In this document: positions 13,110 to 53,709 of the stretch, piece after piece
Numbering within the stretch: position 1 is the stretch's first letter
Layout: the number at the start of each line of letters is the position of its first letter
Assembly: GCA_963764025.1 (NCBI GenBank)
Contig: CAVXRK010000004.1
Span: forward strand, 586,178 to 650,177
DNA length: 64,000 nucleotides
DNA from: an uncultured Acidobacteriota bacterium
Lineage (GTDB): Bacteria; Acidobacteriota; Thermoanaerobaculia; UBA5066; Gp7-AA6
Direction: 5' to 3'
Translations under genes and position numbers: made by a program
Notes under the pieces: generated by a model
Seen by the model: the letters and a program-made list of their open reading frames with translations, nothing else
Told to the model about the DNA's origin: nothing
The model's database searches: none

Positions 13110-13160
13110 CGCCTTGATTTTCCCCGCGAGAGGACACACTCCGGCCGAAACCCGCGCCAG

Positions 13161-13182
13161 ACTATATCTATCTTGATATAGT
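13161..13182. promoter_or_regulatory. Palindromic putative PadR operator (ACTATATC-N6-GATATAGT) overlapping a -10-like TATAGT
   Basis: actatatctatcttgatatagt sits immediately upstream of the PadR GTG start. Confidence 0.4.
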
Positions 13183-13187
13183 TGGCC

Positions 13188-19919: not shown

Positions 19920-20216
19920 TTAGCGCATCCCCGGCATCATTCCGCCGAGCATCGACGCCGTCTTCTTCTGCACGGCCTCGTCGACGCGGCGCGAAGCCTC
20001 GCGCGCCGCGGCGAGGACCAGGTCCTGCAGCGTTTCGACGTCCTCGGGATCGACGGCGGCCTTCTCGATGTGGACCGCGAGGACCTCTTTCGTCCCCGAC
20101 ATCTCGATCTTGACCATCCCGCCGCCCGAGGTCGCCTCGACCCGCATGGCGGTGAGCTCTTCCTGCAGCCTGGTCTGCATGGCCTGGGCCTGCTGCATCA
20201 TCTTCTGGATGTTCAT
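19920..20216 (-). CDS. ybaB: Nucleoid-associated protein YbaB/EbfC
   Basis: MNIQKMMQQAQAMQTRLQEELTAMRVEATSGGGMVKIEMSGTKEVLAVHIEKAAVDPED... ATGA overlap with the dnaX stop. Confidence 0.85.
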   Translation of the reverse strand: MNIQKMMQQAQAMQTRLQEELTAMRVEATSGGGMVKIEMSGTKEVLAVHIEKAAVDPEDVETLQDLVLAAAREASRRVDEAVQKKTASMLGGMMPGMR

Positions 20217-21845: not shown

Positions 21846-22068
21846 CGGGGGTATCTTAATCGGTCGCTCGACGCGACCGGACGGGAGCGGAGAGCAAGTT
21901 CGGCAAGATCGAGTGCCTCTGAGGTACCCGGCGGCCGAAGATGAGCTCAGGTTGACCTGCGGCGCACGGTGGCGCCTCCTGATCGCTGCTTCCTTCCGGA
22001 CCTGACGAGGTTCGGAGACTTCCGTCGCACAGGGCCCGAACTCATCTTCCGCCGCCGGACGGACGATT

Positions 22069-23350: not shown

Positions 23351-23537
23351 CAAGCGTGCTCCTTAAGCCACTCGGACACCTCTCCGGGGCGGGGAATCCT
23401 ACAACACCGGCGGCAGTCCCATGCGAGTGAACGCCGCGCTCCGCGCGGCGTTGCCTACTGCCGGGGTTTGCCTCTGGTGGTCGGCTCCAAGCGTGCTCCT
23501 TAAGCCACTCGGACACCTCTCCGGGGCGCGGAATCCT
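23351..23537. repeat. Two direct 57-bp repeats (tccaagcgtgctccttaagccactcggacacctctccggggcg.ggaatcctaaca) flanking a family-B core copy
   Basis: Copies at 23351-23407 and 23481-23537. Between them, gcgttgcctactgccggggtttgcctctggtggtcggctcc is the reverse complement of the family-B motif. Confidence 0.75.
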
Positions 23538-24262: not shown

Positions 24263-24571
24263 TCAGGTCACCGAGCCCATCCGCCGCAGCGACTCGAAGG
24301 AATAGATCCCGTCGTTGTGGCCGTCGGCCCAGTCGATCTGCAGGGCGTAGGAGCCGACCCAGCGGTGGGCCGCCGCCTGGACCGAGAGTGGCGTGAGTGG
24401 TCGGTCCGGCCCGCGGTAGACCTTGCCGAAGAGGTCGGGCTCCCCCTTGCACATGGCGCACGGGCAGGCGCGGCGGAGCTTCTCGAGCGAGAGGTAGTCC
24501 TCGCGTCCGTCGTCCCAGACGATCACGAGCTCCTGGCCCAGAACCATGACCTGCTTCGGGACCGAGATCAC
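24263..24571 (-). CDS. DUF971-family small protein, GTGA-coupled to the kinase K1 stop
   Basis: (GTG)ISVPKQVMVLGQELVIVWDDGREDYLSLEKLRRACPCAMCKGEP...SYALQIDWADGHNDGIYSFESLRR. The kinase TGA and this GTG overlap in cgGTGAtc. Confidence 0.6.
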   Translation of the reverse strand: MISVPKQVMVLGQELVIVWDDGREDYLSLEKLRRACPCAMCKGEPDLFGKVYRGPDRPLTPLSVQAAAHRWVGSYALQIDWADGHNDGIYSFESLRRMGSVT

Positions 24572-27171
24572 CGAATGCCCTCGGCGAGGAAGAGGTCCGA
24601 GAGGATGCGGTTGTAGGAGTAGACGTACGCCTTCCCGTCGGGCGTCAGCGCGGGCGGCGAGAGCGTGCTGATCCCGGCGGGGTCGAGCGGAACCAGTTCC
24701 CTCCAGAGCTCGCGCTTGCCCGTGGCGAGATCGATCCGGTAGACCCGGCCCGGCAGGGCTCCCCGGTCGAAGGCGAACAGCGCGCGATCGCCGGCCCAGC
24801 CCGTCGGATCTTCCTGCGCCTCGAGGCCCGGGATCGGCGCCGGCTCGCCGCCGTCGAGCGGATACAGATAGCGCCGTCGATCGGGCCCCTGGACGGCCGC
24901 CAGTCGGCCATCGGGCGAAATGGCGCGCAGGAAGGCCCGGTAACCCGCCGGCGAGACGGCCCGCGGTTTTCCTTCGGCGCCATCGAGAAGGAACAGGCGA
25001 CTGCCCTTGCCCGGCTCGCGGGCGGTCAGGAGGATCCGCTTTCCGTCGGGAAACCACTCCGCACCCGATGCAACGAGATCCCCGGTCGGGACGGTCCTCG
25101 CTTCTCCCGCTCCGGCCGGCAGGACGACGACCTTCGGACCGGTCCCAACGTTGGTGACGCCGAGGACCCAGCGGCCGTCCGGAGAGATCGACATGGGGAC
25201 GCCCTCTCCCAACCGCACCGGGGGCGACCCGTCCATGCGCCTCAGGTAGGCCGAATAGCCGGCGCCTCCGCCCTCTCCGGACTCGACGAACACGAACGAC
25301 TTCCCGTCCGGCGAGATGTCCCGGACGCCGGACCAGTCGAGCCATGAAAGGTCCTTCTCCCGCGAGTCTCCCGGCGAGAATCCGAGGATTCCGGAGCGCA
25401 GCGTGTCGTGGGCGATGAGCACCCGCCCGTCCTTCGCGACGTCGTGCAGCGTAAGATTTCCGGTGACCCGCGCGACGACACGGTGGGCGCCGGCCCGGTT
25501 GACGGCATGGAGCGCGCGGTTTCCGCCGACATCTGCTGCCGTGAACCAGACCTCCCGGCCCCGAGGCCCCCACGCCAGACCGCCGGCCGTGGAGAATCCC
25601 GTCGCGAGCGTCTTCAACTTTCCGGAGGCGTCGACGACCGCGATCGAGCCGCCGTCGTCGCCAATGGTCGGGTGGTCGATGAAGGCGACAAGGTCCCCCG
25701 TCGGCGACACGCGCACGTTGCTGACCCAGCCCGTGGTCTCGTAAAGGACCTTGCCGACGGGATACTCGATCCGGTTCCTCGCCCCGACGAGGCGGACGAT
25801 CGCGAGGGTCTGTCCGTCCGGCGCCCAGTCCGCGAAGAGCACGTCGTCCTGGATCTCCCGGGGGGTCCCGCCGCCCGTCATCCCGATCCGCGCGAGCATC
25901 CCGCCGTACTCGAAGGGCCCGACAAAGTGGCGGTTGAGATTCACGGCCATCTCGCCCGAGGCCGAAATGGAGAGAAGGTCCGCCCCCGCCAGCCCGAAGG
26001 GCCGCGCTTCCGGGCTGTCCAGGCGGCTGACGAAGATCTCGATCGGACGGCCCTCCCAGCCCGCGGCATAGATCACTGTCTGGCCGTCGGGCGCGAACCG
26101 GGCATTCATGATCTCGCCGCGCTGGAACGTCAGCTCGCGGAAAGACGGCGGCGTAACGGTCCCCGCTTTTCTTCCGACCGCGAACGCGGCCACGCCGACC
26201 ATCGCCGCCAGAACGGCCGCGCCGAGGAGCCAGGGCCAGCGGCGCCGGCCCGAGCGCACCGCCGCCGCGGCCGCGGCCGTCTGGTCCGTCGTCGTCGAGA
26301 ACGAGGCTTCCGAGAGGTGGTCGCGCACGTCGGCGAGGTCGCGCGCCAGATCCTTCGTCGTTCCGAACCGGTCCTCGGGGTCCTTCGCGAGACAGCGCTC
26401 GACGAGCCACCGCACGGGCGACGGCACTTTCGGGTTGACCTGTCCGACGGGGTCCGGCTCTTCCCGGATGATCGCCGTCAGCGTCTCGGCGGTCGTCGAT
26501 CGCTCGAAAGCGCGCTTGCCCGTCGCGAGCTCGTAGACGATCGAGCCGAAGGAGAACTGGTCGGAGCGAAAGTCGACGACCCGTCCCGCGGCCTGCTCGG
26601 GCGACATGTAGCCGACCGTTCCCATGACCATGCCCGGCCGCGTCGGATCTCCGACCGCCGTCCTCAGGGCCGAGACCTCCTGGTCCTCCGGCGTCACGAG
26701 CTTGGCGAGGCCGAAGTCCAGGATCTTCGCGAACCCGTGCTTGGAGACCATGACGTTCTGCGGTTTGAGGTCGCGGTGCACGATTCCGGCGGCGTGGGCC
26801 GCCGCGAGGCCCTCGGCGATCTGCACCGAGATTTCGAGAAGCTTCTTGACGGGCACCGGACCGGAGGCCGAAAGGTCCTTCAGCGTCCCGCCCTCGACGA
26901 GCTCCATGGCGATGTAGATGGTCGAATCGTGGGAGCCGATGTCGTAGACGGTCAGGATGTTCGGATGCGAGAGGCCCGAAGCCGCGCGCGCCTCCCGCTC
27001 GAAGCGGGAACGCCGCTCGGGATCAGACGCGAGCTCGGGAGGCAGCACCTTGATCGCGACGTCGCGCTTGAGACGCTCGTCGCGCGCGCGGTACACCTCC
27101 CCCATCCCTCCCGCACCGATTGGCACGAGGATCTCGTAGGGGCCGAGCTTCGTTCCGGCGGCGAGCGTCAT
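24568..27171 (-). CDS. Ser/Thr protein kinase with TM helix and C-terminal TolB/PD40-like beta-propeller (K1, intact, divergent subtype)
   Basis: 867 aa. [43 protein letters not shown]...HRDLKPQNVMV..DFGLAK...GTVGYMSPEQ; TM WPWLLGAAVLAAMVGVAAFAV; then repeated ..SPDG../..PDGK.. blades. Confidence 0.9.
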   Translation of the reverse strand: MTLAAGTKLGPYEILVPIGAGGMGEVYRARDERLKRDVAIKVLPPELASDPERRSRFEREARAASGLSHPNILTVYDIGSHDSTIYIAMELVEGGTLKDLSASGPVPVKKLLEISVQIAEGLAAAHAAGIVHRDLKPQNVMVSKHGFAKILDFGLAKLVTPEDQEVSALRTAVGDPTRPGMVMGTVGYMSPEQAAGRVVDFRSDQFSFGSIVYELATGKRAFERSTTAETLTAIIREEPDPVGQVNPKVPSPVRWLVERCLAKDPEDRFGTTKDLARDLADVRDHLSEASFSTTTDQTAAAAAAVRSGRRRWPWLLGAAVLAAMVGVAAFAVGRKAGTVTPPSFRELTFQRGEIMNARFAPDGQTVIYAAGWEGRPIEIFVSRLDSPEARPFGLAGADLLSISASGEMAVNLNRHFVGPFEYGGMLARIGMTGGGTPREIQDDVLFADWAPDGQTLAIVRLVGARNRIEYPVGKVLYETTGWVSNVRVSPTGDLVAFIDHPTIGDDGGSIAVVDASGKLKTLATGFSTAGGLAWGPRGREVWFTAADVGGNRALHAVNRAGAHRVVARVTGNLTLHDVAKDGRVLIAHDTLRSGILGFSPGDSREKDLSWLDWSGVRDISPDGKSFVFVESGEGGGAGYSAYLRRMDGSPPVRLGEGVPMSISPDGRWVLGVTNVGTGPKVVVLPAGAGEARTVPTGDLVASGAEWFPDGKRILLTAREPGKGSRLFLLDGAEGKPRAVSPAGYRAFLRAISPDGRLAAVQGPDRRRYLYPLDGGEPAPIPGLEAQEDPTGWAGDRALFAFDRGALPGRVYRIDLATGKRELWRELVPLDPAGISTLSPPALTPDGKAYVYSYNRILSDLFLAEGIR

Positions 27172-27182
27172 TGGGAGCGGGG

Positions 27183-27192
27183 GGATTCTACC
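27183..27192 (-). promoter_or_regulatory. GGTAGAATCC motif (TAGAAT -10-like) 12 nt upstream of K1 ATG
   Basis: Coding-strand ggtagaatccccccgctcccaATG. The same motif recurs 10-14 nt upstream of the K3 and K7 start codons. Confidence 0.3.
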
Positions 27193-27198
27193 GGAGGC

Positions 27199-29780
27199 CT
27201 ACTTCAGGCCTTCGACGAGCTGGAGGTAGGACAGCACCCGCAGATAGCTGTACGCGTAGAAGCGGCCGTCGGGGGTGGTGACGAAGCGGCTGGCGCCGGC
27301 CAGACCCGCAGCATCGGCTGGCGAGACTTCCTTCCAAAGGTCGAGCCGGCCAGTGGCCGGGTCGTACCTGGAGACCTGCATCGGGAGCCGGTTGGCGTCC
27401 TGCACGAAGAGACTCCGCCCGTCCGGCGTCCAACGGATCGGGCGATGGATGGAGGTGAGGCCCGGGAGGGCCGTGGGCTCGCCGCCCCCGACGGCGTAGA
27501 GATAGATCCGCTGATCCGGGCCGCTCACGACGACGGACTTTCCGTCGGGCGTCACGGTCCCCCGGAACAGCGAGTAGCCCTCTGGAGATATCGCACGGGC
27601 CTTCGCTCCCGCGATGTCTCGCACGTACAGCCGTGTTCCGCGGCCGGCCTCGGACGCGGTGAAGATCAGGCTCTTCCCGTCCGGAAGAAAGTCGGCGTTG
27701 AACACGTCGAGGCCATCGTGCGAAAGCGCCCGGGGCTCCCCCACGCTCGTGGGGAGCATGTGAATCTGCGGTGTGGCCGTGTGGGTGATCGCAATCGCCC
27801 ACGCGCCGTCGGGCGAGAACGCCTCGGTCGAGCCATCGCCGAGCCGCACCGCCGGCGAGCCGTCGAAGCCCCGCAGGTACGCGGAGTAAGAGGGACCTCC
27901 CCCTCTCCCGACTCCGTGATGAGGATCTTGCTGCCGTCGGAGCGGATGTCGGTCACGAGCGAGTAGTCGAGCCACGACAGCTCCCGTTCCTTCGCCTCTC
28001 CCGGCCCGAGCGCAAGAATTCCGAGACGGGCGCTCTCGTTGGTCATCAGCACCCGCCCCTGCTGTGAGATGTCACGAATCGTGCTGATCCCGGGCACGCG
28101 CCCGACCAGGCGCACTTTTCCGGAAAGCGTGACGCCGTGCACGGCCCGATTGAAGCCGCCCACCGCCGCGGTGTACCAGATCTCGCCGCCGTCCGGCCTC
28201 CAGACGAGGCCCTGGGCCGTCGCATAGAGGGGCGACACGTCCCGCTTCTTCCCGGCCCGATCCACGACTGAGACAACCCCCCCGTCGTCGTTGGGGACCT
28301 GATGGTCGAGGAAGGCGACGAGCCCTCCGTCCGGGGAGACCCGAGGGTGGCTGATCCAGCCCGAGGTCTCGTAGAGAACCTTCCCGATCGGAAACTCGAC
28401 GCGACACTTCGGACCGACGTCCCGGACGATCGCCAGGTCCTTCCCGTCCGGCGACCAGTCCGCGAACTGGACGTCGTCGAGGATGTCGCGCGGTGCGCCG
28501 CCCGCGATCGAGATTCGCGCGAGCCGACCCGTCGTCACGAACGCCTTCGTGCGACGGGGAGCCAGCTTGATCGCCATCTCACCGGACCTCGAGATGGCGA
28601 GAACCTCGGCTGGGGGCAGGCCGAAGGGCCGGGATTCCGGGCTCTCCGGCCGGTTGATGAAGATCTCGAAGGGTGCCCCTTCCCAGGCGGCGGAATAAAC
28701 GACCGTCTGGCCGTCCGGCGCGAAGAGCGAACCGGCAACCTCGCCGCGCGAGAAGGTTATCTGGTGAAACTCCGGCGGTTCGACGACGCCGGCCTTCTTG
28801 CCGGCGGAGTAGATGAACGGCGATGCGATGGCCGCGCCGAGGACCGCCGCGAGCGCCAGCGCGGCCCAGGGCCGTTTCTTCCCGGCCGCCGGCAGGGCGC
28901 GCACGCCGGTCGTCGTCGCTCCGGAGAGGCTCGACAGCGCCTCGAGGTCGAACGCGACGTCGCGGGCCGACTCGAAGCGTTCTTCGGGGTTCTTTTCCAG
29001 GCAGTGGCGAACGATCCGGTCGAGGCCCGGGTGGACGTCCTTGTTCGTCGTCGAGAGATCCGGCGGCTCTTTCGTCAGGATCGCCGTGATCGTGTCCGCC
29101 GCCGTGTCCCCGCGGAAGGCGCGCTGGCCCGAGAGCATCTCGTACAGGATCGTCCCGAAGGCGAAGAGGTCCGACCGCTTGTCCGCGGCCTTCCCGCGCA
29201 CCTGCTCGGGCGCCATGTAGCCCATCGTCCCGAGCACGACGCCGGGCTGCGTGCCGCCGGAGACGGTGCCCATGTCCGTCTGTCCGCTCTCGTCCTGCTG
29301 GGTCTTGAGCTTCGCGAGCCCGAAGTCGAGAATCTTGACCCGGCCGTCCTTCGTCAGGAAAAGGTTCTCGGGCTTCAGGTCCCGGTGGACGATCCCCTTC
29401 TCGTGCGCCGCCGCGAGCCCGCGGGCAATCTGGACGGCGTAGTCGATTGACTTGCGCACCGGGAGCGAACCCGTCAGCAGCCGCGCACGCAGGGTCTCCC
29501 CTTCGAGGAGCTCCGTGACGATGTACGGGGCGCCGTCGTGCGTGCCGAAGTCGTAGACCGCGGTGATGCCGGGATGGTTCAGGACCCCCGCCGCCCTCGC
29601 TTCCTGCTCGAACCGCTTGAGGCGATCCGGGTCCTGCGAGAAGGTTGCGGGCAGGACCTTGATCGCGACCTCGCGGCCGAGACGCGGATCCTTGGCCCGG
29701 TAGACCTCTCCCATCCCCCCCGCCCCGATCGGCGCGAGGACCTCGTACGGCCCGAGCTTCGAGCCCGCAACGAGCGTCAT
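27199..29780 (-). pseudogene. STK-TolB propeller kinase paralog K2 (subtype A), single -1 frameshift in a G-run near 27895
   Basis: N-terminal 704-aa [47 protein letters not shown]...[16 protein letters not shown].. reads to ..ILITESGEGE and then shifts. The C-terminal 258-aa ORF continues GGGPSYSAYLRGFDGSPAVRLG...LQLVEGLK in another frame. Confidence 0.75.
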
Positions 29781-32361
29781 TTCAAACCGTCGACCAGGTA
29801 GAGGTCCGAGAGCGTCCGCTGGAAGCCGTAGACGTAGGAAGCGCCATCGGGAGTGGTGATGATGGGTGCGATGTCCACGATTCCCGACCCGTCGGCTGGC
29901 ATGACTTCGCGAACGAGCTCCTTCTTTCCGCTGGCGAGGTCCAGCCGATACAGGCGCCCGGGGAGGTCGCGGCGGCGGTAGACGTAGAGGGACTTACCGT
30001 CCGCGCCCCACCCGCCCGGCGACTCGTCGTCGGCGAGTCCCGGGACCGGCGCGGGCTCCCCGCCGGCGAGCGGATAGAAGTAGCGTTTTCGGTCGGGCCC
30101 GCTGACCAGGACCCGGGCGCCGTCCGGCGTCACGCCGCGGGAGAACGATCGGTAGCCCTCCGGGGTCAGCGCCCGCGGTTTTCCGCCGTCGATCGCGATG
30201 ACATAGATGCGCGGTCCCCGATCCGGCTCGTTCGCCGTGAAGACGATGCTCTTTCCGTCGGGCGTGAACGAGCTCCCGCCCTGGGTCTCGAGATCACCCG
30301 TCGCCAGGACCTTTTTCTCGCCGGCCCCCGTCGGATAGAGCGTGATCGTGCGCTTCGGGCGTCCGACCTGGACCGCGGCCCACTGGCCGTCGGGCGACAG
30401 CGCCTGGCCGCCGCCCTCGCCGAGGCGGACCGGAGGCGCGCCATCCGTGCTGCGAATGAAGGTCGAGTACGCCGGGCCGGAGCCCTCGCCGGTCTCGGAA
30501 AAGAGAATCGTCTTCCCGTCATTCGAAAGGTCGAAGAGCGACGACCAGTCGAGCCAGGCGAGCTCCTTCTCCTTGGGCTGGCCTCCTTTTCCGGCGAGGA
30601 TCCCGATGCGGATCGAGTCGTGCGCGACGAGAACGCGCCCGTCCCGCGACACATCCTGCAGCGTGAGGCTCTGCGTCACACGGGCGAGAAGGCGCTCTCC
30701 GCCGTCCAATGAGAAGGCGTGAATGGCCCGATTGCCGCCGACCTTCGCCCCGGTGACCCAGATCTCCTTCCCGCTCGGCGACCATGCGAGGCCGTATTCC
30801 GACGAGAACTCTCCGGCGAGCGAGGTCTTTTTTCCCGACCGGTCGACGACCGCGACCACCCCGCCGTCGTCCCCGCGCTGCGGGTGATCGAGAAAGGCGA
30901 CGTGATTCCCGTCGGGCGAGACCCGCGGATGGCTGATCCAGCCGGCGGTCTGGTAGAGCATCTTGCCCGCGGGAAATTCGAGCTGGTTGCGCAGGTTCAC
31001 GTCCCGGACAATCGCCAGGTCCTTGCCGCCCGGCCCCCAGTCCGCCCACTGCACTTCCTTGTGGATCTCGCGGGGAGCGACGCCACCGCTGACCCCGACT
31101 TCTGCGAGCGTCCCGCTCCGGGTGAACGGTCCGTCGTTGTGGCGATCGAGCGAAACCGCCATTTCCCCGCTCTCCGAGATCGCCAGCAGGTCCGCGCCGA
31201 CGAGGCCGAAGACTCGCGACTCGGGGCGATCCGTCCGGGTCGAGAAGAGCTCGACCGGCCTTCCGTCCCATGCGGCCGCGTAAACCACCGTTTGCCCGTC
31301 AGGCGCGAACCTCGCGGAGTAGACCTCGCCGCGCCGGAAAGTCAGCTGCTGGTAGTTCGGCGGTGGGACGTAGCCCGCCTTCTTGCCGTACCGAAATCCG
31401 GCCGCCAGGCCCGCGGCGATGCCGACCGACGCGGCCAGAAGGGCCGGCCCGATCCAGCGCGACCTCTTCGACACCACGGGCGTCGAAACCGCACCCGTCT
31501 GCGTCGAGATGCTCGAGAGCGACTCCAGGTCGAACGCGACGTCGCGCGCCGACTCGAACCGCTCCTCCGGGTTCTTCTCGAGGCAGTGGCGAACGATCCG
31601 GTCGAGCCCCGGGTGGATTTCCTTGTTGGTCTGCGACAGGTCCGGCGGCTCCTTCGTCAGAATCGCCGTGATCGTGTCCGCCGCCGTGTCGCCCCGGAAC
31701 GCGCGCTGACCGGCCAGCATCTCGTAGAGGATCGTCCCGAAAGCGAAGATGTCCGACCGCCGGTCGGCCGGCTTGCCGCGCACCTGCTCCGGCGCCATGT
31801 AGCCCATCGTCCCGAGCACGACGCCCGGCTGCGTGCCGCCCGAGACCGTTCCCGCATCCGTCTGGCCGGTCTCGCCGCCCTCGATCTTCAGCTTCGCGAG
31901 GCCGAAGTCGAGGATCTTGACCCGCCCGTCCTTCGTCAGGAACAGGTTCTCGGGCTTCAGGTCCCGGTGGACGATCCCCTTCTCGTGCGCCGCGGCGAGT
32001 CCCTTCGCGATCTGGACGGCGTAGTCGATGGCCTTGCGCACCGGGAGCGACCCGGAGAGGAGTCGCGCCCGGAGCGTCTCGCCCTCGAGAAGCTCCGTGA
32101 CGATGTACGGAGCGTCGTCGTGCGTCCCGAAGTCGTGGACCGCCGTGATGTTGGGGTGGTTCAGGACCCCGCGGCCCGCGCCTCCTGCTCGAAGCGCTTC
32201 AGCCGGTCCGGATCCTGCGAGAACGACGCCGGCAGCACCTTGATCGCCACCTCGCGGCCGAGGCGCGGGTCCTTCGCCCGGTAGACCTCTCCCATCCCTC
32301 CGGCGCCCAGCGGCGCGAGGATCTCGTAGGGACCGAGCTTGTTTCCGGCGGAGAGCGTCAT
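29777..32361 (-). pseudogene. STK-TolB propeller kinase paralog K3 (subtype A), 1-bp deletion in a G-run near 32165
   Basis: 66-aa N-terminal [47 protein letters not shown]...EQEARAAGS*; the correct continuation [15 protein letters not shown]... is in the next frame. The 754-aa ORF then carries the rest of the kinase, the TM helix and the propeller (...LYLVDGLK). ATGA overlap with K2. Confidence 0.75.
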
Positions 32362-32387
32362 TAAGGCGGCAGGATTCTAACCGCGAA

Positions 32388-34962
32388 TCACTTGACGCCG
32401 TCGACGAGGTAGAGGTCGGACAGCAGCCGGAAGTAGCCGTAGACGTAGGACTGGCCGTCGCTCGCCGGTCCAGGATTGATGTTCGAGACGCCTGCGGCGT
32501 CGGCCGGCATCAGCGTTCGCCAGAGCTCCTTCTTCCCCGTGGCGAGCTCCAGGCGGTAGGTCTTCGCCGGCACTTCGCTGCGTCGGTGAACATAGAGAAA
32601 GCGGCCGTCGGCGCTGCGCTGGTCGACCGAGTCGTCGTCGTCGAGCCCCGGTATGGGAGCAGGTTCTCCGCCCGCGAGCGGATAGAGGTAACGCCGTCGA
32701 TCCGGGCCGCCGACCACGGTCCACTTTCCGTCGGGAGCGGTGACTCCGGCCAGCGAGTAGCCCTCCGGAGTCAGGGCCCGAGGCTTGCCGCCCGCCACGT
32801 CGAGCCGGAAGACCCGCGAGCCGCGGCCCGGTTCGGCCGCCTCGATGAGAACGCTCTTCCCGTCGGGAACCCAGCCGGCTCCGAAAACCCTGAGACCGTC
32901 GGTCTTGAAGACCTTCATCTCTCCCGCCCGGGTCGGATACGCAACGAGGCGCGGATCGGAGGACGGTGCGCTGGATCGCCAGCGCCCACTCCCCGTCCAG
33001 CGACAGGTCCCGGGCTCCGCCCTCGCCCAGCCTCACGGCCGGCGAGCCGTCCGTCTTCCGTATGTAGACGGAGTACCCGGCGCCTCCTCCCTCCCCGGTC
33101 TCGGAGAAGAGGATCGTCCGGCCGTCGGCGGCGATGGCGGCGCCGAGCGTCCAGTCGAGCCAGGTCATGTCGCGCTCCTTCGTCTCGCCCGGAGCCAGGC
33201 CGACCATCTCGGAACGAAGCGTGTCGCGCGTGACGAGCATGCGGCCTTCCCGCGAGATGTCCTGGAGCGTGAGGCACCCCGGCACCGCGGCGCGGAGCGC
33301 CGCCTTCCCCGAAAGGGTGGTCACGTAGAGAGCGCGGTTGCCCCCGACCTCCGTCGGCCGTGAACCAGATCCGCCCGTCGGCGCCCCACGCGAGCCCCTG
33401 CGCCGACGCAAACGACTGCGAGGCTGTCCGCTTCTTCCCGGAGCGGTCGACCACGGCGATCGACCCGCCGTCGTCCCCGGGCGTGGGATGGTCGTCGAAG
33501 GCCACGAGCTCGCCGTCGGGCGAAACGCGCAGGTGGCTGACCCATCCGCTCGTCTCGTAAACGGTCTTGCCGACCGGGTACTCGATTCGGCTCTTTCCGG
33601 CTCCTCGGAGAGAGACGGCGAGGGCCTTGCCGTCGGGCGCCCAGTCCGCCCACTCCACCCGTTCGAGGATCTCGCGCGGCGCCGCGCCCCCGGCGACGGA
33701 GATCTGCGCGAGCGTTCCCTGGCGGCGGAACCCACTCGACGGATCTCCGGTTGAGCGACACGGCCATGTCGCCCGTTCGCGAGATCGCGAGGACCTCCGC
33801 ACCGACGAGGCCGAACGGCCGCGATTCCGGGCTCTCGGGACGGCCCACGAAGATCTCCATGGGGCCGCCGTCCCAGGCGGAGGAGTAGACGACGGTCTGG
33901 CCGTCCGGTGCGAAGCGCGCGGCATAGATCGTGCCGCGGCGGAAGGTGAGCTGACGGAACGACGGCGTGTCGAACTTCACCGTTCGGCGTCCGAGAAAGA
34001 AGGTCGCCGCCATCCCCGCGAGCGCCAGCGCGGCGGCGAGGAGGAGCGCCCGGCGCGGCCGCGACATCGCCACACCCTTCGCCGCCGCGGCGGCCGCCGC
34101 CGGGGTCGACCCGGACAGCGCCTGGAGGTCGAACGCCAGGTCGTGCGCCGAGTGGAAGCGCTCCTCGGGGTTCTTCTCGAGGCAGTGGCGAACGACGCGC
34201 TCGAGGCCCGGCGCCACGTTCTTGTTCGTCGCCGAGAGGTCGGGCGGCTCCTCGCGCAGGATCGCCGACATGGTCTCGGCGGCCGTGTCGCGGTGGAACG
34301 CGCGCGACCCCGACAGCATCTCGTACAGCACGGCCCCGAACGCGAAAATGTCGGAGCGCGCGTCGGCTGACTTCCCCTTGACCTGCTCGGGCGCCATGTA
34401 GCCGAGCGTCCCGAGGACGACCCCGGGCTCCGTCCCGTCCGCGGTCGGCAGGTTGGTTTGCGGGTTCGGCTGCCCTTCCGGCTGCGTCAGCTTCGCCAGC
34501 CCGAAGTCGAGGATCTTGACCCGCCCGTCCTTCGTCAGGAAGAGGTTCTCGGGCTTCAGGTCGCGGTGGACGATCCCCTTCTCGTGCGCCGCCGCGAGGC
34601 CGCGCGCGATCTGGGTCGCGTAGTCGGTGGCCTTGCGGACCGGCAGGGCGCCGCCCGAGAGCCGCGCCCGGAGCGTCTCGCCCTCGAGGAGCTCCGTGAC
34701 GATGTACGGCGCGCCGTCGTGCGTGCCGAGATCGTGGACCGCCGTGATGTTCGGGTGGTTGAGCCCGCCCGCCGTCTGGGCTTCCTGCTCGAAGCGCCGC
34801 AGGCGCTCGGGATCTCCCGAGTAAGACGCGGGCAGGACCTTGACCGCGACCTCGCGCTTCAAGCCGCTCGTCGCGCGCCCGGTAGACCTCTCCCATCCCT
34901 CCGGCGCCGATCGGCGCGAGGACTTCGTAGGGTCCGAGCTTCGTTCCGGCAGCGAGGCTCAC
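32388..34962 (-). pseudogene. STK-TolB propeller kinase paralog K4 (subtype B), at least 3 frameshifts
   Basis: Four ORF fragments: 34962-34860 [34 protein letters not shown], broken by an extra base in cttGaag; 34862-33321 kinase plus TM; 33925-32915 mid-propeller; 32918-32388 C-terminus ...LYLVDGVK. Confidence 0.7.
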
Positions 34963-37553
34963 TTCAATCCTTCGACCAGGTACAAGTTCGAGAGGTTCCG
35001 GAAGTAGCTGTAGGCATAGGCGCCGTTCGGCGCGTTGACCGGAAGGCGATCAGACTGTTGATCCCGGTCGCGTCGGACGGAAAGAACTCGCGCCAGAGCT
35101 CCTCCCGGCCGGTGTCCGGGATCGAGCGCGAAAAGCCGCATCGGCATCTCGGTCGAGGTCCCCTTGCGCACGAGGATTCGACCGTCCGGGGTCCAGCCCG
35201 CGAGCGAAGACGTCGTCTCGTATCCCGGCACCGGCTTCGGCTCTCCTCCGTCGACCGAGACGACGAATGCCTCGCCCTTCGGTCCCCTTAAGGCGACACG
35301 CTTTCCGTCCGGCGAGACCAGGATCCCCCGGTAGCCCTCCGCGGTCAGCGGCCGCGGTGCGCCGCCCTCGGCGTCGAAGACGTACGTTCGCGCGCCGCGT
35401 GCCCTTTCTCGACGGCGACGCGCGAGAAAGTGCCGCCCGTCGGGCAGCCATCGGGCGATCCGAACGGCGAGATCCGCCGTCCGGGACCTTCTTCGCTTCG
35501 CCGGCGCCCGTCGGATACACGACGATCTCGGGCGCGTCGGGCGCGCCCACGAACGCCAGCACGCGCTTGCCGTCGGCCGAAATGGATTGGGCGTTGCCCT
35601 CTCCCAACCGCACCGCCGGCGAACCGTCGATCGCGCGCAGGTAGACCGAATAGCCCTTTCCTCCGCCCTCGCCCGCTTCGCTGAAAAGCACGGATCGCGC
35701 CGTCGGCGGAGATGTCCGGCATAAGGCTCCAGTCGAGCCAGCTCAGGTCGATTTCCTTCGCGTCGGCCGGCGCCGCGGGCGAGGATGCCGATCTGTCCGG
35801 TGTCGTGCGAGATCAGGACGCGGCCGTCCCGCGATGACGTCCTCGAGCGTCAGCGATCCCGCGACGCGGGCGAGCGTGCGAGTCCGGCCCGAAAGCGTGG
35901 CGGAATGGAGAACACGGTTGCTGCCGACCTCCGCCGCCGTGAACCAGACCTCCGAGCCGTGCGGGCGACCAGGCGAGCCCGTTCGACGACGCGTAGACCG
36001 GGCGAGATGGTCGTCTTTCTTCCCGGCGCGGTCGACCACGGCGACGGATCCGCCGTCATCGTTGACGGCGGGATGGTCCAGGAAAGCGATCCGGGCGCCG
36101 TCGGGCGAGAACCGGGGGTTGCCGATCCAGCCCGCGGTCTCGTACAGGACCTTTCCCGTCGGGAACTCGAGCCGGCACTTGCGGTTCAGGATCCGCACGA
36201 TCGCGAGGTCCTTGCCGTCGGGGGACCAGTCGGCGTACTCGACGTTCTCGAGGAGCTCGCGCGGCGCGCCGCCGGTCGCGCTGACCCGCGCGAGCGTGCC
36301 GGTACGCGTGAAGGCCGTGTCGAAGTCGGCTTTGAGGATGACGGCCACCTCTCCCGATGCGGAGACGGCGGCGACGTCGGCGCCGGGAAGGCCGAACGGC
36401 CGCGACTCGGGGCTGTCGGGCCGGCTGACGTAGATCTCGGCCGGCTTTCCGTCCCAGGCCGCCGTCGTCAGGATCGTTTTTCCGTCGGAGCCGAAGCGCG
36501 CGCCCCAGATGGCGCCCTTGCGGAAGGTGAGCTGGCGGAAGGTCGGGGGCTCGGCTCGTTCCCTTCCCGTGGCCGAGGAAGTAGCCCAGGGCGACGGCCG
36601 CCGCGAGAGCGGCGGCGCCGACGGCGTACGGAACGACGCGCGCCCGGGCCGGCCGATCGGGCACCGCCGAAACCGCCGTCGACGCCGGTCGTGCCCGACA
36701 GCGCCTCGAGATCGAACGCCAGGTCGTGCGCCGAGTGGAAGCGCTCCTCGGGATTCTTTTCGAGGCAGTGCCGCACGACGCGGTCGAGCCCCGGCGCGAC
36801 GTTCTTGTTCGTCGCCGAGAGGTCCGGCGGGTCCTCCCGCAGGATCGCCGACATCGTCTCCGCCGCCGAGTCGCGGTGGAAGGCGCGCGAGCCCGAGATC
36901 ATCTCGTAGAGGACGGCGCCGAACGAGAAGATGTCCGAGCGCGCGTCGGCCTTCTTTCCCTTGACCTGCTCGGGCGCCATGTAGCCGAGCGTGCCGAGGA
37001 CGACGCCGGGCTCGGTGCCGTCGGCGGTCGGCAGGTTCGTCTGCGGCCCGGCCGCGCCGTCGGCCTGCGTCAGCTTGGCGAGACCGAAGTCGAGGATCTT
37101 GACCCGGCCGTCGTTCGTGACGAAGAGGTTCTCGGGCTTCAGGTCCCGGTGAACGATCCCCTTCTCGTGCGCCGCGGCGAGCCCGCGGGCGACCTGGATC
37201 GCGTAGTCGGTGGCCTTGCGCACGGGCAGCGCGCCGCCCGAGAGCCTCGCCCGCAGCGTCTCGCCCTCGAGGAGCTCCGTGACGATGTACGGCGAACCCT
37301 CGAACGCGCCGAGCTCGTAGACCGAGGTGATGTTCGGGTGGTTGAGCCCGCCGGCCGACTGCGCCTCCTGCTCGAACCGGCGCAGGCGCTCGGGGTCCTG
37401 CGCGAACGACGAGGGCAGCACCTTGACCGCGACGTCCCGCTTCAGCCGCTCGTCGCGCGCCCGGTAAACCTCGCCCATCCCTCCGGCGCCGAGGAGGCCG
37501 AGGACCTCGTAAGGACCCAACTTCGTCCCGGCGGCGAGACTCAAAGGGACCAC
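34959..37553 (-). pseudogene. STK-TolB propeller kinase paralog K5 (subtype B), multiple frameshifts
   Basis: N-terminal 361-aa kinase ORF (..[53 protein letters not shown]..). Propeller pieces in two other frames (..[24 protein letters not shown]..; ..MLFSEAGEGGGKGYSVYLRAIDGSPAVRLG..; ..LYLVEGLK). ATGA overlap with K4. Confidence 0.7.
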
Positions 37554-37698
37554 CGCACTTTCTGCCCGTCATTCCGAGGAGCGAAGCGACGAGGAATCCC
37601 GCGCTCGACGCGCCGCCGGGTGGTCCGAGCCCGGGATGCCTCGCTGCGCTCGGCATGACGGCGAGTGTCGAGAATCAATTTCAACCCTTCTAACCGAC

Positions 37699-40270
37699 TC
37701 ATTTGAGGTTCTTCACCTGATACAGCGTCGAGAGAACCCGAACGACCCCGACGATCACCGTCCGACCGTCCGGCGTCACGCGCACCGGTCCGAAGGAGGT
37801 CACACCCCCGGAATCGCCGCCGGAGAGCTCCCGGACTCGGGTCCGACGGCCGGAAGCGATGTCGATCAGGTCGAGCTTGCACGGGATCCCCTGCTGGGAG
37901 ACGTACAGGCCCTTCCCGTCCGCCGTCCATCCCGCCGGCGAGTCCGCGGGCAGGGAGGCCGCCAGATCGGTCGCGGACCCTCCGCCGAGCGGGTAGAGGT
38001 GCACCCGCGTATCCGGGCCGATGGCGGCGATCCAGCGCGAGTCCGGAGAGACGAAGTGACGCGCCGAGGAGATTCCCTCCTGGCTGATCGCTTTCGGCGC
38101 GCCTCCGGCGAGGTCCTGCACGTAGAGGCGGCTCCCCCGCCCCGGGGCGTTCGCCACGAATACGAACTTCGTTCCGTCTGGAACGAAGGCCCCATACGAC
38201 GTTCGTCCGAGGTCGTCGGGCGGAAAAGACTTCGGCTGTCCGATCTTCACCGGCACGAGCACGAAGTGCTGCGGATTCGAAAACACCCGGGTCAGCGCCC
38301 ACGCGGAATCGGGCGACAGGGCGATTCCGACGCCGTCACCCAGCCGAACGGCGGGAGCGCCGTCCGTCGGCCGCAGGTACACTCCGCCCGCCGGCCCTCC
38401 GCCTTCCCCCGACTCGTCGAACAGCATGAGCTTGCCGTCCACCGAGAGGGCGCGGTCGCTCGACCAGTCGAACCAGGTCAGATCCTTCCCGGCCGGCTCC
38501 CCGGGCCCGAAGACGGCCACGCTCGACCGGTAATCGTCCTCCGTGATCAGAGCGCCTCCGTCCTTCCTCACGTCGAGAAGCGCCGGAGTTCCCTGCATCG
38601 TCCGGATCAGCCGGAGCTTGCCCGCCGGAGTGACGCCGTAGACCATGCGCTCGATGCCTTCCCGCGCCGCCGTGAACCAGATTTCGCGACCGTCCGGCGA
38701 CCACGCCAGGCCCTGCACCGTGGCCCATCCTTCGGAGAGATCGGTCTTCTTGCCGGCGAGATCGACGATCGCGATCGCGCCGTCGTCTCCCGCCGAAGAG
38801 TGGTCGATGAACGCGATCCTGCGTCCGTCCGGAGCAAAGCGCGGATTCTGCATCCAGCCCGCCGTCTCGTAGAGAACCTTGCCGATCGGATATTCCAGTC
38901 GATCCTTGCCTCCCGTGCGGCGCATCACGGCGAGCTCGGACCCTCCCGGCGCCCATTCGGCGTAGCCGACGTCGGCCAGCACTTCCTTGGGAGCTGCGCC
39001 CGACAGCGGCACTCGGGCGAGCGTCCCGTGGAGCGCGAAGCCGTTCACGTTGTAATTCGGCTCGAGCAGGACCGCCATCTCGCCGGAGGACGAGATCGAC
39101 AACAGTTCCGCCGCCGGCAGCGGAAGCGTGGAGGATTCCGGGTTCCCGGGTCGCAGCGAGTAGATCCGGGGAGCAGCCCCGCTCCAGGCGGCCGTGTAGT
39201 AGACCGTGCTGCCGTCGGGCCCGAATCGCGCCGTGCTGACGGTGCCGCGCTGAAACGTCAGGCGCTGAAAGGTCGGCTGTGTCGACGATCCGGTGCGGCG
39301 GCCGCGCGTACAGCCCCAGGAGGGCGCCCACGACGGCCGCCAACCCCAGAAGAGCCCAGGGCCGTCGCGCGCGTTTCGCGGGGAGCGCCCGCACGCCCGT
39401 GATCGCCGGTGACGACAGACCCGAAAGCGCTTCGAGATCGAAGGCGACGTCCCTCGCCGACTCGAACCGCTCCTCCGGATTCTTCTCGAGACAGTGCCGC
39501 ACGATCCGGTCCAGCCCGGGTGGCACGTCCTTGTTCGTCTGCGAAAGATCCGGCGGCTCCTTCGACAGGATCGCCGTGATCGTGTCCGCCGCGGTGTCGC
39601 CGCGAAACGCCCTCTGCCCCGAGAGCATCTCGTACAGGATCGTCCCGAAGGCGAAGAGATCGGACCGCTTGTCGGCCGACTTCCCGCGCACCTGCTCGGG
39701 CGCCATGTAACCCATCGTCCCGAGCACGACTCCCGGCTGAGTCCCGCCCGAGACCGTTCCGGCGTCCGTCTGACCGCTCTCCGCGCCGTCCAGCTTCAGC
39801 TTCGCGAGGCCGAAGTCGAGGATCTTGACCCGCCCATCCTTCGTCAGGAACACATTCTCGGGCTTCAGGTCGCGGTGGACGATCCCCTTCTCGTGCGCGG
39901 CCGCGAGACCCTTCGCGATCTGCACGGCATAGTCGATCGCTTTGCGCGGCGAGATGGCGCCGGGCCCGAGCCGGCTGCGCAGAGTCTCGCCTTCGAGGAG
40001 CTCCGTGACGATGTACGGCGCGTCGTCGTGCTCGCCGAAGTCATAGACCGCCGTGATGTTCGGATGGTTCAGCGCCCCGGCCGCCTGGGCCTCCTGCTCG
40101 AAGCGCTTCAGGCGATCCGCGTCCTGCGAAAACGACGCCGGCAGCACCTTGATCGCCACGTCGCGCTTGAGCCGCTCGTCCCGCGCGCGGTAGACCTCCC
40201 CCATCCCGCCCGCCCCGATCGGCGAGAGGATCTGGTAGGGACCGAGCTTCGTGCCGGCGGCCAGGGTCAT
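37699..40270 (-). pseudogene. STK-TolB propeller kinase paralog K6 (subtype A), single +1 insertion near 39270
   Basis: 644-aa N-terminal ORF ([44 protein letters not shown]...TM..TADL) and 467-aa C-terminal ORF (..[16 protein letters not shown]...VLSTLYQVKNLK). An extra T in gaccTTTcag separates them; correcting it gives [27 protein letters not shown]. Confidence 0.75.
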
Positions 40271-40271
40271 T

Positions 40272-40480
40272 TCAGATTCCGGGTCCAGTAAAGAGTCGAG
40301 AGAACAGAGTGAACCCCAACGTCATCGTTTTCCCGTCGGGCGTGACGCGTGCCGAACCACGGGCTGTCATGCCGGCGAGGTCAGTGGCAGACAGGTCGCG
40401 AACGTGCGTTCGAGCTCCGGAGACGATGTCGAACGAGTGAACGAGCGACTTGCCTTCCCATTTGCCGCCGAGGCAAACGC
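40272..40480 (-). pseudogene. 3' remnant (last ~70 codons) of a further kinase-propeller paralog
   Basis: ..[56 protein letters not shown] resembles the K6 C-terminus (..LIDIASGRRTRVRELSG..VRVTPDGRTVIVG..LSTLYQVKNLK). Its stop lies 1 nt before the K6 ATG. Confidence 0.55.
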
Positions 40481-40585
40481 CGGTCTGACGACCGGCGTCA
40501 AGCTCGGCGTCGCCTCCGGCAGGCGGTCTGCCTTCGGTGGCCGGCTCCACGGTCCGCGAAGCGGACCGCTAGAGGTCCGTGCCAT

Positions 40586-43165
40586 CTACCGGAGACCATC
40601 CACGACGTAGAGATCCGCGAGACTGCGCGCGAAGGAGTAGGCGTAGTACTTCTCGTCGGGCGTGATCCAGACTGGCGAGATCAGCCAGATGCCGGCCGGG
40701 TCGGGAGGCATGAGCTCTTTCCAGAGCTCCTTGCGACCCGTGGCGACATCGAGCTTCATGACGCGCTGCGGCACTTCTCCGCGGACGCGCACGAACAGGA
40801 AGCGGCCGTCGGCAGTCCAACCGCTCGGAATGTCTCCCTTCACGAGCCCCGGGATCGGCGCTGGCTCTCCGCCCGCGACCGGATAGAGATAGAAGCGCTG
40901 GTCCGGGCCGACCACCGTCAGAGCCTTGCCATCGCGAGAGCCTCCCCTCGCGAACATCCGGTAGCCCTCCGGTGAGACGGGCTTCGGTTTCGCGTCGTCC
41001 AACCCCTGCACCCAGAGGCGCGACCCGCGATCCGGCTCGCTTCCGGAGAAGACGATCCGGCGGCCGTCCGGCAGCCAGTCCGCCTGCTCGATCCGGATCG
41101 CCGTCGCCGGCAGCATCTTCGGCTCGCCCGCGCCTATCGGATAGATCGCGAAGCGATAGAGCGCGCCCTGCTTGACGATCCCGAGCGCCACGCGGCCATC
41201 CGGAGAAAATTCCGCGGCCACGCCGCCCCCGAGTCGCACCGCGGGCGACCCATCCGCCTTCCGAACGTAGACGGTGTTACCGCCCGAGCCTTCGCCGCTC
41301 TCGTCGAAGAGCAGCGTCTGGCCGTCGGGAGTGACGTCGCGAATGAGCGACCAGTCGAGCCAGGCGAAGTCGCGTTCCTTCTCTCCACCGGGGAGCAACC
41401 CGGAGATCCCCTGGCGGGCTTTCTCCTGCGTGACGAGCACTCGCCCGCTCTTTGCGACGTCCTGGATCGTGAAACCGCCGGTCCCCTGGGCGAGGATTCG
41501 GACTCGGCCGGAGCGGGAGGCGGCGCAGAGCGCCCGCGTGAAGCCCTCCTTCGCCCCCGTGAACCAGACCTCGGAGCCGTCCGGCGACCACGCGAGCCCC
41601 TGTGCGCTGACGAAGAGGCCGGAGATCACGACTCGCTTACCCGAGCGGTCGACGATCATTGCCGTTCCCGCGTCGTCGCCCTGAGCCGGGTGGTCGAGAA
41701 ACGCCACCTCGTCGCCCTTCGGCGAGACCCGCGGATGGGAGATCCAACCGGCGGTCTCGTACAGGACCTTGCCGACGGGATACTCGAGCCGGACCTTTCC
41801 GCCCTGCTGCCGAACGATGGCGAGACTCTGGCCGTCCGGGGCCCAATCGGCCCACAGCACGTCCTCGAGGACCTCCTTCGGCGTGCCGCCGCCCGTCATG
41901 CCGAGGCGCGCGAGCGTGCCGGTACGAGTGAACGGGATCGAGCCGTGGCGATTCAGCGACACCGCCATCTCTCCGGAAGGCGAGACCGCCAGCACCTCCG
42001 CGTTCGCCAGGCCGAACAGGCGCGACTCCGGATTGTCCAGCCGCGAGACGAACACCTCCATGGGGCGGCCGTCCCAGTTCGCCGAGTACAGGATCGTCTG
42101 TCCGTCCGGAGCGAAGCGCGCGGAGGCCATCACGCCCCGCCGGAACGTGAGCTGGTGAAACGTCGGCGGCGGCACGTATCCGGCGCGCTTCCCGACCCAG
42201 TAGGCCGCCGCGATTGCCGCGAGCGCAACGCCGACGCCGACCAGAAGCGGCAGGCGGCGGCCTCCGACCGGCACGCGCAACTTTTCGAGAGTGGGCTTTG
42301 AAGCGGAGGACCCGGAGAGCGCCTCGAGATCGAAGGCGAGGTCGTGTGCCGAGTGGAACCGCTCCTCGGGGTTCTTCTCCAGGCAATGGCGCACGACGCG
42401 CTCGAGGCCCGGCTGCACGCTCTTGTTCGTCGCCGACAGATCCGGCGGCTCCTCCCGCAGAATGGCCGACATCGTCTCGGCCGCGGTGTCCCGATGGAAA
42501 GCGCGAGCGCCCGAGAGCATCTCGTAGAGCACCGCCCCGAACGCAAAAATGTCGGAGCGCGCGTCGGCGGTCTTGCCCTTGACTTGCTCCGGCGACATGT
42601 AGCCGAGCGTCCCCATCACGACGCCCGGCTCCGTCGCCGGAGGCGCGGTCGGGAAATTCGTCTGCGGACCCACCGCGCCGTCGGCCTGCGTCAGCTTGGC
42701 GAGACCGAAGTCCAGGATCTTGATCCTCCCGTCGTTGGTCACGAACACGTTCTCGGGCTTGAAGTCCCGGTGAACGATTCCTTTCTCGTGCGCCGCGGCG
42801 AGGCCCCGGGCCATCTGGATCGCGTAGTCCGTGGCCTTCCGCACGGGAAGGGCTCCCCCGGAGACGCGGGCGCGCAGCGTCTCCCCCTCGAGAAGCTCGC
42901 TGACGATGTATGGAGAGCCCTCGTAGGAACCCAGCTCGAACACCGCGGTGATGTTGGGATGGTTGAGCGACCCTGCGGCCTGCGCCTCCTGCTCGAACCG
43001 CTTGAGGCGATCGGTGTCCTGCGTGAACGACGGTGGGAGGACCTTGACCGCGACGCTGCGTTTCAAACGCTCGTCCCTGGCGCGGTAAACCTCGCCCATT
43101 CCCCCGGCGCCGATCGGCGCGAGGATCTCGTAGGGGCCGAGCCTTGTTCCCGAGGACAGCGTCAT
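40586..43165 (-). CDS. Ser/Thr protein kinase with TM helix and C-terminal TolB/PD40-like beta-propeller (K7, intact, subtype B)
   Basis: 859 aa from ATG (cat at 43163-43165). [44 protein letters not shown]...HRDFKPENVF..DFGLAK..; TM LPLLVGVGVALAAIAAAYWV; propeller to ..LYVVDGLR. GGGTAGAATCG lies 14 nt upstream. Confidence 0.9.
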   Translation of the reverse strand: MTLSSGTRLGPYEILAPIGAGGMGEVYRARDERLKRSVAVKVLPPSFTQDTDRLKRFEQEAQAAGSLNHPNITAVFELGSYEGSPYIVSELLEGETLRARVSGGALPVRKATDYAIQMARGLAAAHEKGIVHRDFKPENVFVTNDGRIKILDFGLAKLTQADGAVGPQTNFPTAPPATEPGVVMGTLGYMSPEQVKGKTADARSDIFAFGAVLYEMLSGARAFHRDTAAETMSAILREEPPDLSATNKSVQPGLERVVRHCLEKNPEERFHSAHDLAFDLEALSGSSASKPTLEKLRVPVGGRRLPLLVGVGVALAAIAAAYWVGKRAGYVPPPTFHQLTFRRGVMASARFAPDGQTILYSANWDGRPMEVFVSRLDNPESRLFGLANAEVLAVSPSGEMAVSLNRHGSIPFTRTGTLARLGMTGGGTPKEVLEDVLWADWAPDGQSLAIVRQQGGKVRLEYPVGKVLYETAGWISHPRVSPKGDEVAFLDHPAQGDDAGTAMIVDRSGKRVVISGLFVSAQGLAWSPDGSEVWFTGAKEGFTRALCAASRSGRVRILAQGTGGFTIQDVAKSGRVLVTQEKARQGISGLLPGGEKERDFAWLDWSLIRDVTPDGQTLLFDESGEGSGGNTVYVRKADGSPAVRLGGGVAAEFSPDGRVALGIVKQGALYRFAIYPIGAGEPKMLPATAIRIEQADWLPDGRRIVFSGSEPDRGSRLWVQGLDDAKPKPVSPEGYRMFARGGSRDGKALTVVGPDQRFYLYPVAGGEPAPIPGLVKGDIPSGWTADGRFLFVRVRGEVPQRVMKLDVATGRKELWKELMPPDPAGIWLISPVWITPDEKYYAYSFARSLADLYVVDGLR

Positions 43166-51561: not shown

Positions 51562-51638
51562 GCGCCCATAGCTCAATTGGATAGAGCGTCTGACTACGGA
51601 TCAGGAGGTTGGGGGTTCGACTCCCTCTGGGCGCACCA
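51562..51638 (+). tRNA. tRNA-Arg (anticodon ACG)
   Basis: gcgcccatagctcaattggatagagcgtctgaCTACGGAtcaggaggttgggggttcgactccctctgggcgcacca. Acceptor gcgccca/tgggcgc. Anticodon loop ctACGga. CCA encoded. Confidence 0.9.
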
Positions 51639-53619: not shown

Positions 53620-53709
53620 GGAGAGGTGCTGGAGTGGTTGATCAGGCCGGTCTCGAAAACCGGTAGGCCCGAAAGGGTCTCGTGGGTTCAAATCCCACCC
53701 TCTCCGCCA
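53620..53709 (+). tRNA. tRNA-Ser (anticodon CGA), class II with long variable arm
   Basis: ggagaggtgctggagtggttgatcaggccggtCTCGAaaaccggtaggcccgaaagggtctcgtgggttcaaatcccaccctctccgcca. Confidence 0.9.

Follow-up and report, generated by a model that had tools for sequence, protein, structure and literature searches.

Frame breaks in the inner copies of a tandem kinase array from an uncultured Acidobacteriota bacterium probably reflect long-read consensus error and not gene decay

The stretch analysed here, referred to as the window, comprises 64,000 nucleotides of contig CAVXRK010000004.1 from an uncultured Acidobacteriota bacterium and has a GC content of ~70%. Its minus strand carries, from 24568 to 43165, a tandem array of seven head-to-tail paralogues, K1 to K7, each of ~857–867 codons, that are predicted to encode a protein kinase joined to a β-propeller. 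The outer copies, K1 and K7, are intact, as an earlier note on this DNA had reported, each being a single open reading frame (ORF; 867 and 859 aa); the inner copies, K2 to K6, which the same note called decayed, are all interrupted by frame breaks. The sequence comparisons described below make it very probable that these breaks are consensus errors of a long-read metagenome assembly. Apart from the indels, K2–K6 show no decay: they have no stop codons, keep all the kinase motifs and bear the mark of purifying selection, and the supposed decay of the inner copies is in all likelihood not a real biological feature.

Organisation and family of the array

Each copy has the same domain order, with an N-terminal Hanks-type Ser/Thr kinase, a hydrophobic/transmembrane (TM) segment and a C-terminal predicted β-propeller of the PD40/Tricorn_N type. 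The nearest public sequences are metagenome-assembled genomes (MAGs) of Acidobacteriota/Thermoanaerobaculia, mostly from Microflora Danica (MFD), in which a syntenic array is found at 84–95% nt identity. The relatives that served for comparison are L001, L002, L003, L006 and L009, all of them MFD MAGs, L080 (ENA ERZ25039554), and L082, a noisy contig of 12 kb that comes from a different sample. The members of the array are:

24568–27171, minus strand: K1, intact gene for kinase, TM segment and Tricorn_N/PD40 (single ORF, 867 aa)
27199–29780, minus strand: K2, full-length kinase gene, one base short (frameshift-aware alignment)
29777–32361, minus strand: K3, full-length kinase gene, one base short (frameshift-aware alignment)
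32388–34962, minus strand: K4, full-length kinase gene with four +1 insertions (alignment to L001 and L080)
34959–37544, minus strand: K5, full-length kinase gene with 13 insertion events (alignment to L001 and L080)
37699–40270, minus strand: K6, full-length kinase gene, one extra base (frameshift-aware alignment)
40270–40442, minus strand: C-terminal remnant, K6-like (blastx)
40586–43165, minus strand: K7, intact kinase gene (859 aa from MTLSSG; Pkinase 169 bits)

K1 scores 173 bits against Pfam Pkinase, with PD40 in addition, and aligns to its L002 and L009 orthologues as one full-length high-scoring segment pair with 91% aa identity. The coding start of K7 is placed at ~43167 by a frame model based on GC content at third codon positions (GC3), and the 154-codon Arg/Pro-rich upstream extension of its ORF, to 43627, is probably spurious.

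Searches by tblastn with K1 and K7 give 45–85% pairwise aa identity among the paralogues; divergence on this scale marks the array as an old family of genes, as opposed to a repeat of near-identical units. K1–K7 match the Acidobacteriota/Thermoanaerobaculia family of proteins in which a Hanks-type kinase is combined with a TolB/PD40-Tricorn_N propeller, and nothing about them is unusual. More than 7900 homologues are found with E<=1e-100. Thousands of homologues of ~855–865 aa are labelled 'protein kinase' or 'Tol biopolymer transport system component', and precomputed matches to PF26549/PF26550 (Tricorn_N/Tricorn_2nd) and PF07676 are present on homologues. Seven tandem copies plus a remnant make a large array, yet the relatives hold 5–7 copies at the equivalent place. 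The underlying biology, a copy-number-variable kinase/propeller array with one remnant and allelic variation in K1, is ordinary for Acidobacteriota.

Overlaps of 4 nt (GTGA/ATGA stop-start) join K5 to K4 (34959–34962) and K3 to K2 (29777–29780), with equivalents in L080; these suggest that genes within the array may be co-transcribed and translationally coupled. An Rfam scan returned nothing relevant to the kinase array.

Positions of the frame breaks

Frames were checked by tblastn with K1 and K7 as queries, by a GC3-based six-frame hidden Markov model, and by frameshift-aware protein-to-DNA alignment, and all three agree. The events in K4 and K5 were placed by DNA alignment to two independent intact orthologues, those of L001 and L080, which give identical sites.

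K2 has a single −1 event at ~27900–27903 and zero stops in the frameshift-aware alignment. At this site the window has a run of five G residues (GAGGGGGAGG), where L082, L002, L009 and L003 have six (GAGGGGGGAGG/GAGGGGGGCGG), so that the single-base indel in a G run that had been read from the sequence alone is borne out; L080 has GGGCGGC here and L006 has GGGAGGC. The L003 ORF for K2 contains out-of-frame stretches that gave false K2 events, and L080 and L082 served as the K2 references. K3 likewise has one −1 event and zero stops, at ~32166–32167 (GCGGG-GTCC). The relatives read GCGGGCGTC (L082 and L002) or GCGGGGCTT (L001) at this point; where the window has GGGG, L082 has GGGCG and is in frame, and L082, L002 and L080 all read GGGC. 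The earlier note was correct that K3 has lost one base, but that base need not have come from the G run, given the GCGGGCGTC of L082.

A single frame change, with zero stops, is found in K6. The earlier note recognised one extra base here and placed it in gaccTTTcag (39274–39265). Seven intact orthologues of 855–861 aa (83–89% identity) put the junction at GLYA|GRRT, upstream of QPTFQRL; since by this alignment the downstream frame has been entered before QPTFQRL, gaccTTTcag is excluded as the site, and the extra base belongs instead within CTGTACGCGCGGCCGCCGC, that is CTGTACGCG-C-GGCCGCCGC, at 39313–39295.

The remaining two genes, for which at least three shifts each had been proposed, do contain at least that many. 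K4 has exactly four single-base insertions (~34863–34865, 33738, 33357 and 32966), and K5 has 13 insertion events amounting to 15 extra bases between 36683 and 35038, at 36683, 36555, 36018, 35999, 35961, 35835, 35766, 35699, 35476, 35422, 35405 (two bases), 35121 and 35039 (two bases). Neither gene has a deletion or a stop.

Recognition of the true frames is complicated by the base composition: at 70% GC the wrong frames stay open, and automatic annotation would mix 'intact' nonsense proteins with gene fragments. An ORF of 861 aa at 32377–34962 (minus strand) covers K4 but coincides with the true frame only where it begins and over ~390 nt in mid-stretch, about a fifth of its length, and another of 852 aa runs antisense to K1 and K2 (25408–27966, plus strand).

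Between K6 and K7 lies the 3′ fragment of a further copy that the earlier note had also seen; its extent by blastx is ~40270–40442, and not 40272–40480 as first given. It corresponds to the last ~57 codons of a K6-like gene, and its own frame is broken too: it matches K6 residues 803–851 (49% identity, E=9e-10) and, in a different frame, residues 841–857. The GC3 frame model calls it non-coding. This remnant is plausibly the only credible true pseudogene fragment in the array.

The corrected inner copies show no decay

When the indels are corrected, K2–K6 give proteins of 856–861 aa with no stop codons. All five retain the catalytic motifs, namely the Gly-rich loop, the VAxK lysine, HRDxKxxN, DFG and APE; the corresponding motif in K7 is HRDFKPEN. 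Among the corrected copies K2, K4 and K5 were scanned against Pfam, and score 167.5, 175.8 and 172.9 bits for Pkinase (PF00069; cut-off 31.7). PD40 scores are 40–52 bits in K1, K7 and the same three corrected copies, and for both domains these copies are on a par with the intact K1 and K7. Reference-guided frameshift correction thus yields seven apparently functional kinases.

Full-length intact orthologues are 88–98% identical to the corrected copies. Corrected K3 is 93% identical (aa) to its intact L001 orthologue, and corrected K4 is 97.9% identical to L001 K4. Many intact proteins of ~856 aa can be aligned with 100% of the length of corrected K5 (856 aa) and of corrected K6; the best are P0001 for K5, at 93% identity, and one at 88% for K6. 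Intact homologues of K5 and K6 include proteins on Joint Genome Institute (JGI) metagenome contigs.

Ratios of nonsynonymous to synonymous substitution rates (dN/dS), calculated by the Nei-Gojobori method against intact orthologues, lie between 0.06 and 0.21 for corrected K2–K5, with 0.059 for K4 (against L001) and 0.14–0.16 for K5. Intact K1 gives 0.12–0.15 and pairs of intact orthologues give 0.14–0.17. The substitutions specific to the window's own branch number 39 synonymous and 5 nonsynonymous in K4, and 39 synonymous and 19 nonsynonymous in K5. The neutral expectation is 2.8 nonsynonymous changes per synonymous change, and stops would result from 3% of random substitutions. From this synonymous excess it follows that K4 and K5 have been under purifying selection essentially until the present, and 15 real insertions in K5 would therefore have had to arise before ordinary substitutions had time to accumulate. 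In K2–K6 we found no rise in dN/dS, no stop codon and no deletion longer than 1 nt. The description of the inner copies as decayed does not survive these comparisons.

Indel spectrum and clustering

The window as a whole has 22 frame-breaking events, two of them outside the array; 20 are insertions and two are deletions (P=6e-5 under equal rates). Twenty of the 22 fall within the 13 kb of K2–K6, which make up 20% of the window (binomial P=2e-12), and the density is highest in K5, with 13 events in 1.65 kb.

Fourteen insertions have an unambiguous context in the L001 and L080 alignments. About seven of these do not duplicate either neighbouring base, as in ccgtCgagt, cgtcAtcgc, tcgaTcccg, ccggcGtcga and acgaGccga, and none of the 14 is in a run of four or more. 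Slippage in runs is the source of spontaneous +1 frameshifts, and in bacterial pseudogenes deletions are favoured and substitutions far outnumber indels. The observed spectrum fits neither, and looks like base-calling or consensus noise. Informal inspection of the site contexts by eye revealed no mixed-allele signature, in which the inserted base would be the alternative allele of the relatives, and no common sequence or methylation-like motif at the insertion sites.

Related assemblies

None of the lesions of the window was found in L001, L002, L080 or L082. In L080 and L002 all of K1–K5 are intact (856–868 aa), as are K3–K5 in L001. L082 is near-conspecific with the window: the flank that contains the sigma factor is 99% identical, much of K2 is 97–99% identical, and the extracytoplasmic function (ECF) sigma factor protein of the window has an exact match on this contig. 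L082 carries dozens of indels, in both directions, in K3; despite this noise it is in frame at both the K2 site (six G residues) and the K3 site (GGGCG) of the window.

Lesions of a similar kind do occur in L003, L006 and L082, at sites other than those of the window. The K4 orthologue of L003 has ~16 events, all insertions and most of them within ~700 nt, with further breaks in flanking FtsX-type genes. In L006 the K2 orthologue has three extra bases and the K4 orthologue a single one, again insertions only; the K1 of L006 also has frame breaks, for which the more divergent alignment yields mixed indels. A broken FtsX gene is found in L080, and related ENA contigs with like naming carry indel clusters at other positions. 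The pattern is that expected of an error artefact, with the lesions of the window absent from related assemblies and similar ones present at other sites in long-read assemblies of relatives, three of which are documented Nanopore-only MAGs. L001–L003, L006 and L009 are Nanopore-only MAGs that were assembled with metaFlye and polished with one round of Medaka (PMC12313526), and the same group found that Nanopore-only bins below ~40x coverage keep indels that fragment gene calls (PMC9262707).

The indel clusters of the sister assemblies lie at 8085–8778 and 276–2021 in L003, at 5823, 12767–13757 and 16327–17800 in L006, at 1–694 in L080 and at 756–3600 in L082. FtsX/MacB-type permease genes are among the genes that they hit.

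The relatives also differ in the propeller half of K1, which falls into two allele classes that are ~74% identical at the nt level (window 24568–26100 compared with L082 7070–8575). One class occurs in the window, L002 and L009 and the other in L082, L006 and L080, a grouping at odds with how the kinase halves are related. Identity between the window and L082 is 93–99% in the kinase half and in the flanking genes. Such a contrast suggests either replacement of the sensor domain by recombination or a chimeric L082 contig.

Frame breaks outside the array

Over the other ~50 kb of the window, no more than two additional frame breaks are called by the GC3 frame model:

20687–20760 (ORF 19920–21845), minus strand: frame break in the Pro-rich linker of dnaX (GC3 model, comparison with L006)
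3680–3735, at ~3695 (gene ~3400–4599), plus strand: frame break in an M20-type amidohydrolase gene (GC3 model, translations)

In dnaX the C-terminal domain of tau (...ELFHGELTEIKEEE) is off-frame, and the N-terminal frame continues into ybaB to give a 641-aa DnaX-YbaB fusion ORF. L006 has tau in a single frame with the same C-terminal end; relative to it, the window has an indel at 20705–20719 whose net length is not a multiple of three. Because dnaX is an essential single-copy gene, its break is hard to square with real lesions. The amidohydrolase gene, which by its motif we take to be of the M20 family, has ...RADMDALPIEEES and ...GEPYVSRSPGRMHACGHDGH... in successive frames, a shift that a +1 insertion could produce.

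Consensus error as the likely origin of the breaks

Taken together, these observations are best accounted for if K2–K6 are functional genes whose frames were broken by errors of a Nanopore-type, unpolished long-read consensus. Such errors would be overwhelmingly spurious single-base insertions, together with two dropped bases at G-rich sites, and would be concentrated in K4–K5. The window itself would then be the product of a Nanopore-type assembly, and the local clustering would arise from a poor stretch of consensus, through low effective coverage or mixed strains. As the array varies in copy number and in K1 allele class between close relatives, strain heterogeneity over K4–K5, cutting the effective coverage or mixing haplotypes, is a plausible local cause.

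The earlier note had listed systematic sequencing error in a hard-to-assemble repeat among its possibilities. Of these, it is the one that our comparisons support, although collapse of identical repeats is not the cause, the paralogues being only 45–85% identical in protein. Collapse of, or cross-mapping between, near-identical repeats was considered as the sole cause and rejected on the same grounds, and also because the errors in K5 are densest in its propeller half, where conservation is poor. A more likely source of the errors is local consensus quality or strain heterogeneity.

The frameshift pattern matches the indel problem known from Nanopore-only assemblies (the IDEEL-test problem, with R9/R10 data; PMC9262707). 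In both, single-base indels break conserved ORFs and differ between assemblies, and unrelated genes are hit too (here dnaX, the M20 gene and FtsX); the closest relatives of the window are moreover metaFlye and Medaka MAGs. The window is unusual only in its richness in insertions, most of which lie outside homopolymers, and in their tight clustering.

Several points weigh against an origin in consensus error. The errors have been deduced from assembled sequences and not observed in reads. Uniform random error cannot explain 20 of 22 events in 13 kb, and a local cause has to be assumed; K1 and K7 have zero events (P ~4e-4 at the inner-array rate). Nanopore consensus errors are typically described as homopolymer indels (PMC9262707), whereas those seen here are mostly insertions outside homopolymers. 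Finally, dN/dS would be no different if the insertions were real but had arisen in a very recent burst.

Taken at face value, the window would suggest paralogue decay or phase variation in a signalling array, a caution for the annotation of high-GC MAGs from long reads.

Alternative explanations

Pseudogenisation of redundant paralogues, which the earlier note had listed as one possibility, is contradicted by the low dN/dS, the lack of stops, the insertion bias, the many insertions that slippage would not produce, the intact orthologues and the different lesion sites in sister assemblies. A version of this, which we consider improbable, is that the process is genuine but very recent, real indels having inactivated redundant inner paralogues before substitutions could accrue. 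This would agree with the enrichment of breaks in the inner copies, K1, K7 and most of the ~50-kb flanks being clean, and with the dynamic nature of an array that varies in copy number, contains the remnant at 40270–40442 and has two allele classes of the K1 sensor; redundancy among the copies could also have relaxed selection. K5, however, would have to have gained 15 inserted bases with no deletion and no stop while only 19 nonsynonymous changes arose on its branch. About half of the insertions are not duplications, as spontaneous +1 events in runs would be, and a deletional bias would generally be expected of bacterial pseudogenes. Independent sister assemblies have similar clusters at other sites, extending to non-kinase genes in L080 and L003. 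K2–K6 share with known bacterial pseudogene decay the frame-disrupting indels in redundant paralogues, and the remnant fits such decay; in lacking stops, deletions longer than 1 nt and a rise in dN/dS, and in their insertion-dominated spectrum, the five genes differ from it.

Slipped-strand phase variation of K2 and K3 at short G runs, in a mixed population of which the assembly caught the OFF state, seems to us very unlikely. K2 does differ by one G from four relatives (five against six), among them the 97–99% identical L082 allele, and the K3 break is also at a G-rich site. The runs concerned are nevertheless only 4–6 bases long (five or six G in K2, four in K3) and are interrupted in several orthologues, and runs of five or six G are common in a genome of 70% GC. 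Known contingency loci use longer tracts. The resemblance to such loci is confined to the one-G difference in K2, in a tract of 5–6 nt that is not conserved, and involves at most two of the 22 events. Homopolymer slippage, which the earlier note had raised as a possible switch, could thus apply at most to K2 and possibly to K3, where the runs are short and unconserved, and leaves K4, K5 and K6 unexplained.

There is also a slender chance that the clustered +1 insertions are real and represent the footprint of a localised process in the hypervariable sensor-kinase arrays of Thermoanaerobaculia, for example break-induced or gene-conversion repair, in which DNA is synthesised or recombined with many errors. 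If so, error-prone repair would explain the insertion bursts in K4 and K5 of the window, in K4 of L003 and in K2 and K4 of L006, and also the trans-specific allele classes of the K1 sensor half.

Programmed recoding, in which ribosomal +1 frameshifting, transcriptional slippage or editing would get round real extra bases and full-length kinases would still be made, would suit frames that are perfectly restorable and under purifying selection, and the broken genes here include dnaX, a textbook case of recoding in other bacteria; we nonetheless regard it as scarcely credible, since the insertion sites share no common motif, slippery site or conserved position and the orthologues are in frame without the extra bases. 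We know of no bacterial precedent for 13 recoding events in one gene, and in the known dnaX recoding it is the zero frame that yields full-length tau, the reverse of the situation in the window.

Other features of the window

A bacterial small signal recognition particle (SRP) RNA (RF00169, 68 bits) is present at 21942–22041 on the minus strand, directly upstream of dnaX, and several spurious ORFs overlap it. tRNA genes are found at 51562–51635, 53620–53706 and 56627–56698.

An intergenic motif, GAGCCGNCCACCNNAGGCANNCCCCCGGCAGTAGGCAACGCCG, for which no Rfam family was found at gathering score, occurs in seven copies in the window where zero are expected by chance, and a GC-rich hairpin follows several of them. 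The copies are at 11082–11110, 23459–23487 and 40519–40547 on the minus strand and at 53248–53276, 53475–53503, 53739–53767 and 60469–60497 on the plus strand. Three of them flank the tRNA at 53620–53706, and one lies between K7 and the remnant.

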